This document shows, piece by piece, positions 26,483 through 29,440 of a stretch of 31,423 bases of DNA. Made by a program: the position numbers and the translations under genes. The stretch is from a virus (lineage: Duplodnaviria; Heunggongvirae; Uroviricota; Caudoviricetes). Under the pieces are notes generated by a model. That model worked only from the letters and a program-made list of their open reading frames with translations. It did no database searches and was not told the DNA's origin. The stretch lies in IMG/VR virus record IMGVR_UViG_2974574029_000001, positions 1 to 31,423 of that record; one strand, 5' to 3'. The stretch's first letter is position 1. Every line of letters begins with the position of its first letter.

Positions 26483-26511
26483 TTGCCTAGCCAGATGTTT
26501 TCGACTATTAT
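26483..26511 (+). promoter_or_regulatory. Early sigma70 promoter
   Basis: TTGCCT-N17-TATTAT. Confidence 0.7.
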
Positions 26512-26560
26512 TTATTTCAGGGCGGGAAGAAACCAACCCGCAAAACCGAAGGTAAATAAA

Positions 26561-26730
26561 ATGTCAAATATCCGCTACAATATCAAAAGCACTTCAAAAA
26601 CCGGTTATGTGTCTTATGTTCGCCAGGGGTCTACAATGCTTGGGCCTTTGAAGAATGTGTAAAAATTGTTACTACGCTTTCAGGTGATGATCGCTATATG
26701 GGCGTTTTATTTGAGATTGAATTAGCTTAA
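26561..26730 (+). CDS. Early protein of ~56 aa with an apparent -1 indel in the G run at 26626-26629
   Basis: AAGGTAAA SD; MSNIRYNIKSTSKTGYVSYVRQG joins VYNAWAFEECVKIVTTLSGDDRYMGVLFEIELA if one G is added. Confidence 0.55.
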
Positions 26731-26755
26731 TTAGCAAAATAACATCGGGGCGCTA

Positions 26756-26784
26756 TTGCAGCGCCCTTTTTCGTCTGTTATTCT
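26756..26784 (+). promoter_or_regulatory. Early promoter embedded in a terminator
   Basis: TTGCAG-N17-TATTCT inside GGGCGCT-ATTGC-AGCGCCC followed by a T run. Confidence 0.75.
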
Positions 26785-26815
26785 TTTACCTCCCTCATTA
26801 AACGAGTAATACCAA

Positions 26816-27079
26816 ATGACAAACATGATTTACATTGTAAGCAAAACAAGCCTTTTACGCGCTACCCTGCTGGCTTGCCTTATTGCTTTAGTGTCTAATA
26901 CGTGTTTTAACTGGCTGGCCTGTCTGGTAACGACTGAGACAACGGCGCAAGGGTTTAACACCATGATCGACGTTTTACAATTGACGTTTTACACCCTGAT
27001 TAAACTTAATCGCTTTAATCGTTTAGACCGTTATGATCTCCCTTTCTTGATCGCTGGCCTGCTGGCTATCGCGCTGTAA
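26816..27079 (+). CDS. Early membrane protein (2-3 TM segments)
   Basis: Hydrophobic segments; followed by a terminator. Confidence 0.65.
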   Translation: MTNMIYIVSKTSLLRATLLACLIALVSNTCFNWLACLVTTETTAQGFNTMIDVLQLTFYTLIKLNRFNRLDRYDLPFLIAGLLAIAL

Positions 27080-27104
27080 GGCTCCACTACTCCCCAAAAA
27101 TAAT

Positions 27105-27125
27105 GCCGGGCAACTCCCGGCTTTT
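27105..27125 (+). terminator. Intrinsic terminator ending the early block
   Basis: GCCGGG-CAACT-CCCGGC-TTTT. Confidence 0.75.
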
Positions 27126-27361
27126 GTGTTTTTATATGTTAGGTTTTATCAATCAATAATCAAAAAGTGATAGGTGACTAAAACCTGCATAATCGAGATC
27201 TCCAGGCGGTAACCCACTAGCCAGGGCAAGGGATAAAGTCCCTCAGAATGGCGCATATTGCGCTTAAAAGGGTATGGCCCTACCTAACAACCCCCACAAT
27301 TAATAACGCATGTTATTAACTGAATAAAATATGCATTTTTACGCATTATGTATGCATAGCG

Positions 27362-28103
27362 TGAGAATCACTCTCAAATGATAACTTTTATCATCTAATC
27401 TATTGTGTGAACTGGTTTTATTGAGCATAACTATACACTTTTCAAGTGTTTTAACATCCTGTTAAAATCGCCTTGCGATACTAAAATAAAATCTTGTCAA
27501 ATAAAAATCGTTCGCGTAATCGTGGGGAGTGGCGCGAGCGTAGCGAGCGACACAATAACACGAGAGTAACTCAAATGCGAACAAATCGCATTCTCGTTCG
27601 CGTTATCGTGGCTCGTTAGCGCCTAAGAGCGAATGAAAATTGTTATCATTAAGATCATTACATCCGTAATGATTAGCAAACTTATTTTATCACATCGCCA
27701 CGATAACACCGATCACGCTCTGCGTGATCGCTCTCGTGTTATTGTGTCGCTGGTGATAGTAAACCCGTGTTATTATATGCGATCAAATCGCATTAAATCG
27801 TGAATAATGGTTGACAAACCAGAATTATTGATAATGAAAACATGTTGTTTTTGAGCATAGTTTGCCTGAAGTGTCAATATAAATTTATCATAGAGAATAG
27901 CTATCAATCCCTTGCGTAGCAAGGGTTGATGGGAATGATTATCATTGCGGAAATGCTCAAAATTGTATGGTGTGTTAGTGTATTGCTAAACACGATTCTC
28001 TCTCCTTGTCAAGCTTTTATTTATAAATTTACAAAATATTTATATTTACGGAATGATTCTCATTTCGAAATTGAATTCGAAATCGAAATAATAATGATTC
28101 TCA
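27362..28103. promoter_or_regulatory. Cluster of seven Fur-box-like 7-1-7 sequences
   Basis: Sites start at 27362, 27379, 27634, 27892, 27930, 28048 and 28089 (see findings). Confidence 0.6.
27546..27751. other. 206-nt multibranch secondary-structure element (ncRNA or ssDNA structure)
   Basis: Perfect 21-bp inverted repeat 27546-27566/27731-27751 enclosing an 11-bp stem and four hairpins. Confidence 0.8.
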
Positions 28104-28135
28104 TTCGTCATCTCATTCACAAAACAACCCTGAAA

Positions 28136-28153
28136 GATGAATAATCACACATG
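28136..28153 (+). promoter_or_regulatory. ARG-box-like sequence (ArgR)
   Basis: GATGAATAATCACACATG fits TGAAT-N4-A(T/C)NCA; ~108 bp before the XerC arm. Confidence 0.45.
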
Positions 28154-28261
28154 AAACTATCACCATGATAACAGTCACACCATGTAATGACCTGAAGCGG
28201 CTGGCCTATGTGTCACACTGGTAACATTGGGGCATTATTAGTCTGCTATGTATTGTTAGCC

Positions 28262-28289
28262 AGTGCGTATAACGTGTTTTATGTTAAAT
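28262..28289 (+). other. XerC/XerD dif-like recombination site
   Basis: AGTGCGTATAA-CGTGTT-TTATGTTAAAT; XerD arm 11/11 and XerC arm 9/11 identical to E. coli dif (GGTGCGCATAA-TGTATA-TTATGTTAAAT). Confidence 0.85.
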
Positions 28290-28663
28290 GGTGTAATTCA
28301 TATAAATATAAGCTTGTCAAGAGTAAATCGTGCTGTAAGCTGGCAAACCATAAGCTTGCTATCTGACACACCCAATTATTATTAGTTTCGGCAAGTAACT
28401 ATCATGCCTGAAGAGGCCCCGAGGAACCGGGAACCGGATCGACCTTGCCCATGATATTTTGTAAAGATCCGTAAAGATAGTTGACGCCAGGAGCTGTCCG
28501 TCTAGCACCGCAGATGGTGCGAATACAATATTTTTTACCCAAGGACCAAGCCATGATATTTTTCGGCAAGTGATATTTTCGGCAGGGGGTCTGTTTTGAT
28601 TTCCCCACGGGGGGAAGGGGTGGTTATACGGGGAAAACAGGGGCCTGTTTACGCGATATATTT

Positions 28664-28782
28664 ACCCGTGTACGGGTTAGCCTCTGGCTAATCGCCCAAG
28701 GCGATATATTTATAGCACCGGAGGTTTTTGCCTTTGGCAAAGTGCTTCGCACCGTAATGTTTATGGCATCGACACGTTACGG
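28664..28782. repeat. Second chain of back-to-back short palindromes
   Basis: ACCCGT-GT-ACGGGT; TTAGCC-TCT-GGCTAA; ATCGCC-CAA-GGCGAT; TTTGCC-TTT-GGCAAA; GTGC-TTC-GCAC; CCGTAA...TTACGG. Confidence 0.85.
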
Positions 28783-28971
28783 CAATGTGTTTATGAAATG
28801 GAGTTTTATCGACATATCGGGGAGACCCTTCATATTATGTGTGTTAATGGGATGTGCAACCTTTCACGCAGGGGTGGTGATTGTATCCTCCCGCTTCAGG
28901 AGATTTGGCGTATAATGACTATATCAGGGCTGACTGTTTACGTCAAGGAAAATTGATGCGCCACTTTAGAT

Positions 28972-28998
28972 AAAAGAAAAGGAGCCTCTTCAGGCTCC
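28972..28998 (-). terminator. Intrinsic terminator for the leftward genes
   Basis: Minus strand GGAGCC-TGAAGA-GGCTCC-TTTTCTTTT. Confidence 0.8.
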
Positions 28999-29011
28999 CT
29001 TGTTGTGTGGG

Positions 29012-29440
29012 TCAGATATTCTTGACTGCGATCAGGTTTGGGACATACGTGCATGTTGAGGAGTACGGGGTGTCCTTCCTGCGAAGCTGTGTCTTGCACA
29101 GAGAAGCATGTGATTGTGTGTCCACAGGCCCTCGGTCATAGAACGGATATCCGCTGCACATGTACGGGCGATCCTCGTATATTGAGCACTTGTTGTCTTT
29201 CAGCTTTGTGCAGGTAAAGTAGCTGGTGAAGTGTTTTGTTCCTTTACCAACCTCTTCACGACCTGTAACAACAAGAGGATTCCGTTTGTAGGCCTCATCC
29301 CTGGAGATTGGTTTCATCATCTCCCCGTGGATAGCCGATACTCTTCCGGTCCTGACCTTTTCGTGAAATTCTTCGTGCGTGATGTTATCTATGGCGATAA
29401 CTTCACAACAGGCACTGCAATTATGGCAATGTTTTATCAT
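29012..29440 (-). CDS. YkgJ-family zinc/iron-chelating cysteine-cluster protein
   Basis: CHNCSACC...CTKLKDNKCSIYEDRPYMCSGYPF. Confidence 0.8.
   Translation of the reverse strand: MIKHCHNCSACCEVIAIDNITHEEFHEKVRTGRVSAIHGEMMKPISRDEAYKRNPLVVTGREEVGKGTKHFTSYFTCTKLKDNKCSIYEDRPYMCSGYPFYDRGPVDTQSHASLCKTQLRRKDTPYSSTCTYVPNLIAVKNI

Follow-up and report, generated by a model that had tools for sequence, protein, structure and literature searches.

The stretch of DNA analysed here (31,423 nucleotides, hereafter the window) is part of a 145,759-bp virus record, IMGVR_UViG_2974574029_000001, and the closest kin of the phage it represents are Klebsiella phages of the genus Mydovirus, subfamily Vequintavirinae. 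Two convergent gene blocks leave between them a gene-free zone of about 1.9 kb: the plus-strand block stops at 27079 and is followed by a two-way terminator (27105-27121), and the minus-strand block stops near 29012, with a terminator at 28978-29001. This zone holds the element studied in this work, a large branched fold closed by a perfect inverted repeat (27546-27751). The genes near it, in the window as well as in the annotated relatives, are small hypothetical open reading frames (ORFs) accompanied by terminators.

The outer stem of the fold, P1, is formed by the arms 27546-27566 and 27731-27751, which are 100% complementary over 21 nt, have 164 nt between them and close a 206-nt multibranch structure. 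The 5' arm is followed by an unpaired junction, TAACTCA (27567-27573), and then by hairpin H1 (27574-27592), in which AATGCGA (27574-27580) pairs with TCGCATT (27586-27592) around the loop ACAAA. Next comes a site that we call B (TCGTTCGCGTTATCGTGG, 27594-27612); it includes the 5' arm (GTTATCGTGGC, 27602-27612) of the perfect 11-bp stem P2, whose 3' arm (GCCACGATAAC) lies at 27697-27707. The P2 arms enclose a variable, A+T-rich interior (27613-27696), a mosaic that contains hairpins in each lineage, in the window H2 (27613-27629) and the 8-bp H4 (27654-27673, loop ATCC). Between P2 and the 3' arm of P1 stands the 9-bp hairpin H5 (27710-27730), made of CGATCACGC and GCGTGATCG around the loop TCT. 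A first-pass annotation, made from the letters of the window alone, had already described P1, P2, H2, H4 and H5 as they are given here. It had also paired GCGAAC with GTTCGC (27577-27601), and the two are indeed complementary in the window phage; they do not form a conserved helix, as GATAAT replaces GCGAAC in relatives in which GTTCGC is unchanging. The helix that covaries is H1, where AATGCGA/TCGCATT becomes AATGATA/TATCATT or AACGATA/TATCGTT in relatives.

Folding bears out the multibranch structure on both strands, with RNA as well as DNA parameters. Folded as RNA (241 nt), it reaches -98.5 kcal/mol on the plus strand and -102.8 kcal/mol on the minus strand (z = -9.1 and -9.3), with none of 200 shuffles as good; folded as DNA (206 nt), the values are -57.9 and -61.7 kcal/mol on the plus and minus strands (z = -11.2 and -11.6), again with no shuffle close to them. 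P1, P2 and the site flanking P2 occur at no other locus of the 145,759-bp genome. Part of that site recurs just outside the fold: a direct copy, TCGTTCGCGTAATCGTGG (27508-27525, plus strand), is 94% identical to 27594-27611 and lies 86 bp upstream of it, is kept in all genera including the Erwinia phages, and is unique to the locus in the 145.8-kb genome. Altogether the invariant site is represented at the locus by two direct copies and one partial inverted copy.

Immediately to the left of the fold, on the plus strand, a direct 7-mer repeat, GCGAGCG-TA-GCGAGCG (27534-27549), overlaps the first 4 nt of P1. This flank is invariant, or nearly so, in 26 homologues and is kept in the Erwinia phages, and an alternative pairing is possible there (GTGGCGC/GCGACAC in the window, GGTGGC/GCCACC in Erwinia phages). 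The motif GCGAGCGTAGCGAGC, which had been likened to a sequence near ColE1-type origins, is nothing else than this local repeat; 27500-27780 gave no match among 72,556 plasmid records at E <= 0.01, and the ColE1 lead was dropped for that reason.

We then asked how far the fold extends among phages. A blastn search of 50,697 phage records found it in 64, all of them Vequintavirinae, and 53 of these span at least 80% of the query. Matches in Mydovirus come from Klebsiella, Proteus and some Escherichia phages and those in Seunavirus from Salmonella, Cronobacter, Enterobacter and Escherichia phages; in Henunavirus (Erwinia phages) blastn matched the left part of the fold only. Scans of IMG/VR and of metagenomes, with the invariant 18-mer of site B as probe, added few homologues, the metagenome matches being mostly due to chance, and a search by the upstream 87-aa ORF returned only 4 related loci. 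The same architecture is present, full-length and at the same position, in 23 distinct homologues belonging to at least three genera (Mydovirus, Seunavirus and Henunavirus). Some of its parts do not change at all. These are P2, the 5' flank TCGTTCGCGTTATCGTGGCT, the junction TAACTCA and the left flank; site B as a whole is unchanged in all homologues, those of Erwinia phages included, and the junction reads TAACTCA in the Erwinia phages too.

The remaining stems change in sequence and keep their pairing. Our alignment of homologues, A2, comprises 26 distinct sequences; two Erwinia-type sequences, only half of which could be aligned by blastn, were treated as extra to it. RNAalifold predicted 49 pairs on A2, 8 of them with compensatory double changes. 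Pair counts and column shuffles were done in Python: of the cells in the 46 pairs counted, 1164 are Watson-Crick, 27 are G.T and 4 are mismatched, and 26 of the 27 G.T cells belong to one invariant, doubtful pair at the junction. The 31 non-Watson-Crick cells compare with a shuffle mean of 98, and none of 500 column shuffles gave so low a number, while all slid pairing registers collapse; the compensatory pairs taken alone are less extreme, a count of 8 being reached in 6 of the 500 shuffles. The stems are kept by compensatory changes.

The individual stems give the same picture. P1 exists in 9 distinct versions among the 23 homologues, each perfectly complementary to its own partner. Two of these, of Erwinia type (GCCACCTATAAAAGC... 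and GCCACCTATAAACGC...), have about half of their bases in common with the window version and form 21-22 perfect pairs. The only intermediates are one G.T (in VIK251) and one A.C (in KpS8), one per strand reading. H1 has 7 versions, with compensatory double changes at three pairs, and H5 has 9, with stems of 7-9 bp and compensatory changes as well; neither contains a G.T pair, and the mismatches in the two are limited to three single internal ones (H1 of Erwinia phage pEp01, H5 of Mydo, H5 of KNP2/4MG). In H4, ATCATTAC/GTAATGAT is exchanged for ATGATTAC/GTAATCAT. The interior of P2 is unalignable between genera, and in Seunavirus it carries hairpins unrelated in sequence to H2 and H4.

Relatives also differ by insertions of 17, 20, 52 and 53 nt, which lie in loops and are themselves small hairpins, among them a 53-nt self-pairing insertion in the H1 loop of phage Mydo; another self-pairing insertion is found in H5 of one homologue (locus L020). 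They change the distance from arm to arm and leave the pairing untouched. Since insertions of these lengths break any conserved frame, coding can be excluded, and the small "hypothetical protein" ORFs that several GenBank records set on the fold, on either strand (L001, L002, L044, L050 and L054), are almost certainly not genes. In these records annotation pipelines have placed spurious small ORFs on the fold.

The shifts in arm spacing also bear on whether the repeats could be ordinary protein sites. The zone is rich in operator-like palindromes, those similar to a Fur box among them, and P2 and its flank are invariant in sequence, as might be expected of half-sites on duplex DNA through which dimeric regulators of the host or the phage (Fur or others) loop the DNA with no extrusion. 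Half-sites should keep their sequence, whereas P1, H1 and H5 are swapped for unrelated yet complementary ones, and insertions that move the arms by 17-53 bp would break helical phasing while the pairing is kept, which argues against phased half-sites on a duplex. We give this explanation the smallest share of our belief. A Fur reading of H1 in particular was rejected because the sequence of H1 changes while its pairing is kept: in the window phage AATGCGA..TCGCATT stands in place of the Fur-like version (AATGATAAT..TTATCATT). The Fur-like box noticed earlier in an internal loop met the same fate, as it occurs in some relatives only, is absent in 4MG, GAP31, BIS47 and Mydo, and is thus no conserved feature.

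Is the folded molecule RNA or DNA? A structured non-coding RNA of about 210-230 nt, made from one strand and acting as a regulator or a decoy, would agree with a fold that is strong and covarying, and a TTGTCA box is kept in most relatives about 50 nt upstream of the fold, at 27494. With such covariation, a functional RNA should have gathered many G.U pairs on one strand. Here, for all the many compensatory changes, about 1000 stem cells contain essentially no G.U, and the two strands show no asymmetry. The TTGTCA box is missing in the Erwinia phages, and its spacing to -10-like hexamers is not conserved; more generally, no conserved, properly spaced -35/-10 pair was found around the fold among the relatives, and no terminator after P1. 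The best promoter-like match just upstream (27439-27468) sits within a 53-nt insertion that most relatives lack. Rfam covariance models had no match at E <= 1 over 26500-28800 on both strands. The first-pass annotation had likewise seen no convincing promoter and no RNA family that it recognised, and had remarked that strict Watson-Crick pairing fits DNA as well as RNA; the counts now favour DNA. Taken together, the passage from Watson-Crick to Watson-Crick pairs with one G.T and one A.C in the whole of P1, the equal folding of both strands, the lack of a conserved promoter or terminator around the fold and the lack of an Rfam match all favour DNA, and we infer that the element acts as a DNA cruciform or a fold-back strand rather than as RNA. 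An RNA seems to us very unlikely.

A fold could also be there for no reason. It may be a pile-up of palindromic cassettes kept perfect by template-switch (quasi-palindrome) correction, or the relic of a miniature inverted-repeat transposable element (MITE), and in both cases a functionless by-product. The whole gene-free zone does gather small self-pairing insertions, some of which (in PVP-SE1, AV124 and FENT2) are flanked by short duplications of the right arm, and terminal inverted repeats are formally there. On the other side, the fold is present in one copy per genome; P1 has no target-site duplication (..GTAGCG on the left, GGTGAT.. on the right); none of the more than 60 related records shows an empty site; genera whose flanks are down to 68-80% identity still share the architecture and the invariant core; and in several Klebsiella phages identity is 92% over the fold, against 79% over the 800 bp around it. 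We regard a by-product as very unlikely, about on a par with an RNA. The MITE candidate, to which the 21-bp terminal inverted repeats conform, was rejected on its single copy and on the lack of both a target duplication and an empty site.

The position of the fold suggests where its function may lie, as it has a fixed neighbour in the terminal repeat of the genome. In the record of phage DP, a repeat_region of 514 bp is annotated at each end, and its two identical copies align to 27989-28502 of the window. Independently of this, a direct terminal repeat (DTR) of 514 bp has been described in phage KPP-1 from two-fold read coverage and PhageTerm, and the phage was classed as having T7-type packaging (PMC9862379). 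On the alignment of the DP copies and the equal length of the KPP-1 repeat, we place a 514-bp DTR of the window phage at 27989-28502. Its start, the predicted left genome end, would lie within the motif GC/TAAACACGATTCT (27985-27999, plus strand), the beginning of the DP repeat_region, AACACGATTC, corresponding to 27989. The terminus sequence GC/TAAACAC(G/A)ATT is kept in three genera (Mydo-, Seuna- and Henunavirus), and TAAACAC is found 226-317 nt after P1 in 22 of the 22 homologues checked.

The fold ends at 27751, about 235 bp before the predicted left DTR boundary, a setting that the first-pass annotation had not noticed, and in the virion DNA it would thus sit some 750 bp in from the right physical end. 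The DNA that contains it is unique and in a concatemer is the right-end side of the junction between genomes; in KPP-1 the fold lies on the same side of the DTR, about 300 bp off. Of the sequencing runs, none contained more than 22% of the sampled words of 27100-28900, and the usable ones were all contigs. In three wastewater runs from two studies, contigs start at 28000-28005, 11-16 nt inside the predicted repeat start, and one of these contigs has a transposase adapter directly before its start; such starts are weakly compatible with a physical DNA end nearby. Two metatranscriptome runs cover part of the repeat and not the fold, and were counted as evidence neither way.

A sister genus provides an analogue. 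The record of Vequintavirus Gotham (MT682716), which runs in the opposite direction to the window, carries the measured repeat of this phage, 459 bp long, at both its ends. On the equivalent side, with 200 bp between it and the repeat, stands a nested fold (z = -10.5) whose closing stem is a perfect inverted repeat of 18 bp (659-676 / 793-810); TAAC then follows the outer stem, as in the window, and the outer-stem arm resembles the Erwinia version of P1. No inverted repeat was found to the left of the right-hand repeat of Gotham. As a fold stands beside the repeat in Gotham too, such a fold in this place is a trait of the subfamily.

We infer from this arrangement a link between the fold and end processing. 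Where a phage has short exact repeats, adjacent genomes of its concatemers have a single copy of the repeat in common, and that copy must be duplicated before or during cutting. The role that we favour for the fold, at somewhat less than even odds (about 0.45), is as a cis signal in genome-end maturation, that is, in the duplication of the DTR or in packaging. It would be a single-copy, non-coding DNA signal that acts via intra-strand pairing, either as a cruciform extruded from supercoiled duplex or through the fold-back of either strand once displaced or unwound, and it would serve to duplicate the single terminal repeat that joins the genomes of a concatemer, or to start cutting and packaging. 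That one arm of the branched fold is invariant points to a protein by which P2 and its flank are read. This might be a phage protein, the small terminase or a nuclease, and it would also read the direct copy that the site has 86 bp upstream; P1, H1 and H5, the stems that covary, would contribute shape only, much as in the terminal repeats of adeno-associated virus (AAV). One might speculate further that the element is a protein-recognised fold-back, similar to an inverted terminal repeat (ITR), in a large double-stranded DNA myovirus, on which a structure-specific nuclease or a terminase starts hairpin-primed copying of the single repeat in concatemers, or from which both displaced strands prime synthesis outward. 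This more specific version is doubtful.

Several points weigh against a role in end maturation. The DTR coordinates of the window phage are transferred from relatives: its own record is stored without end repeats, and short exact repeats have been shown in the relatives DP, KPP-1 and Gotham. The distance from fold to terminus comes in two classes, about 235 and about 305 nt, the difference being a hairpin cassette of some 70 nt, and this variability indicates that an exact spacing to the cut site is not needed. Perfect palindromes can also be maintained by template-switch correction under weak selection. Finally, a non-coding hub beside the genome ends could equally hold a replication origin.

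An origin or priming signal is indeed the main rival, if one to which we give appreciably less credit than to end maturation. The unwound fold would recruit primase, primosome or RNA polymerase, in the manner of single-strand initiation (ssi) signals and single-strand origins (sso), with the A+T-rich interior as unwinding element and the repeated invariant site as binding site of an initiator. An imperfect branched palindrome of about 200 nt resembles ssoA-type, ssi and Frpo signals; the interior is A+T-rich as this reading would have it, the invariant site stands twice in direct and once in inverted orientation, and the motifs are unique in the genome, as an origin would be. The A/T-rich centre of each P1 arm, TGTTATTGT (TGTTATAGT in Salmonella phages), would moreover give an extended -10-like element in the paired stem. 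Yet no initiator gene is adjacent in the window or in the annotated relatives, known ssi signals are strand-specific while here both strands fold equally, and the tight, subfamily-wide tie to the terminal repeat is not demanded of an origin. Nor did we find an iteron-type array at the locus, which has only the two direct copies and the partial inverted one, with no initiator-like gene adjacent.

Among the elements at phage genome junctions, those of T7 and T3 (pacB and the "hairpin end" repeat) are nearest to a signal for end maturation as proposed here. These phages have short exact terminal repeats, and relatives of the window phage are classed as T7-type packagers. The cis sequences needed for T7/T3 packaging, pacB, lie in unique DNA left of the repeat, and the T7/T3 elements are cis-acting and non-coding and stand in unique DNA just left of the right-end terminal repeat, as the fold does. 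There, too, self-pairing DNA has been proposed to help duplicate the repeat; Chung, Nardone and Hinkle (J Mol Biol 216:939) reportedly proposed in 1990 a hairpin end beside the T7 junction as an intermediate. No sequence relation of T7 or T3 to the fold was found by blastn in the phage records searched. The right end of T7, which counts as a further point against the proposed role, has only short imperfect inverted repeats of 10-12 nt with 83-90% identity, unlike the 206-nt branched fold with its invariant core. As the T7 repeats are this weak, the analogy with T7 is positional and not structural.

In shape, the fold resembles the T- or Y-shaped ITRs of parvoviruses and AAV, which follow the same plan of a long outer stem around small inner palindromes; the likeness is one of shape only. 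In the AAV ITR one arm is sequence-specific and the others provide shape only, in strictly Watson-Crick DNA, and it is the same split that we propose here. The AAV ITR is located at the physical end of the genome, whereas the fold would lie about 750 bp inside the predicted right end (27751 against 28502) of a double-stranded genome of 146 kb. The ssi signals and single-strand origins (ssoA, Frpo of F, G4- and phiX-type) are branched imperfect palindromes of 150-300 nt with small conserved patches, active only when folded in single-stranded DNA. The stable branched fold in single-stranded DNA expected of them is found here (DNA parameters, z about -11). They are strand-specific, and the replicons that carry them have an obligatory single-stranded stage; here both strands fold equally, and no plasmid sequence matches the fold. 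The injection-stop-signal region of T5 resembles the zone in being gene-free, near a genome end and dense in inverted and direct repeats; it differs in lying inside a 10-kb repeat and in being linked to two-step DNA entry, which is not known for the phages of this group.

We found no description of the fold in the literature on Vequintavirinae terminal repeats, transcriptomes and transposon maps or on PVP-SE1. A HIDEN-SEQ study of Vequintavirus Bas54 obtained insertions at 91.6% of TA sites, of which those outside genes were recorded and not analysed (PMC13716836). The phage of the PhageMaP study (PMC11482910) is a Felixounavirus, that is, a member of a different group.

It is unsettled, even for T7, by what means a phage with short exact repeats restores the second copy when genomes are cut from concatemers, and in the large rV5-like phages, many of which are candidates for therapy, the packaging signal and the origin are unmapped. 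The fold offers a precise, conserved and mutable target with built-in controls, namely stems that can be broken and restored and an invariant arm in which changes should not be tolerated. If the ITR-like version were true, no cis element for the duplication of terminal repeats would have been defined before it outside T7, and structured DNA signals would gain a new class. A gene-free zone beside the predicted genome ends is also relevant to the genome engineering of these phages.

Some further features surround the fold. Between it and the terminus, the box AATGGTTGACAAA (27806-27818, plus strand) is kept in all genera, with no conserved, properly spaced -10 after it. Around the fold there are three copies of the motif TTTTGAGCAT (27419 and 27849 on the plus strand, 27953 on the minus strand), and in the repeat two of CTTGTCAAG (28005 and 28313); both motifs are kept across genera, and since no copy has a partner hexamer at the proper distance, they may be sites for proteins and not promoters. 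Upstream, 27430-27482 is a 53-nt block of three small hairpins that only the window phage and Mydo possess; it is missing in most relatives and in a 16-kb contig, from an isolate run of a relative, that spans the whole zone, and it contains the sole decent sigma-70-like match upstream of the fold. Downstream, 26 nt after the fold, a second hairpin of H1 type (27777-27794, ATGCGAT-CAA-ATCGCAT) is 94% identical to 27575-27592 and is found also in one metagenome relative, though not in DP.

The right arm of P1 is interrupted in a few relatives. In PVP-SE1 (L007:1512-1826) and AV124 (L048) about 80 nt, rich in hairpins, are inserted there between duplicated copies of 13 bp of the arm, GTGTTATWGTGTC, and the insertion is nearly identical between a Seunavirus and a Mydovirus; in FENT2 (L050) a different insertion, of 46 nt, is flanked by TGTGTCG at the same spot. 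To judge by these insertions, staggered breaks or a tiny mobile cassette may have a hotspot at the outer end of P1.

Around the start of the predicted repeat, palindromes similar to the core of a Fur box, AATGATTATCATT and AATGATTCTCATT (the latter twice), straddle the boundary at 27934-27946, 28052-28064 and 28093-28105 and are kept in relatives; the Gotham repeat (L061:9-35) starts with the similar motifs ..CTTCTCATTC.. and ..AATTCTCA.. They could be bound by the Fur protein of the host, or by a phage protein that acts at the genome end. Further inside the repeat, positions 28262-28289 read AGTGCGTATAA-CGTGTT-TTATGTTAAAT. Compared by eye with the dif site of E. coli (GGTGCGCATAA-TGTATA-TTATGTTAAAT), the XerD arm is identical and the XerC arm has two mismatches. 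Just past the right boundary of the repeat, 28600-28760 is a chain of short G+C-rich hairpins, such as CCCGTGTACGGG, TTAGCC-TCT-GGCTAA and ATCGCC-CAA-GGCGAT, so that the terminal repeat has self-pairing DNA on both sides.

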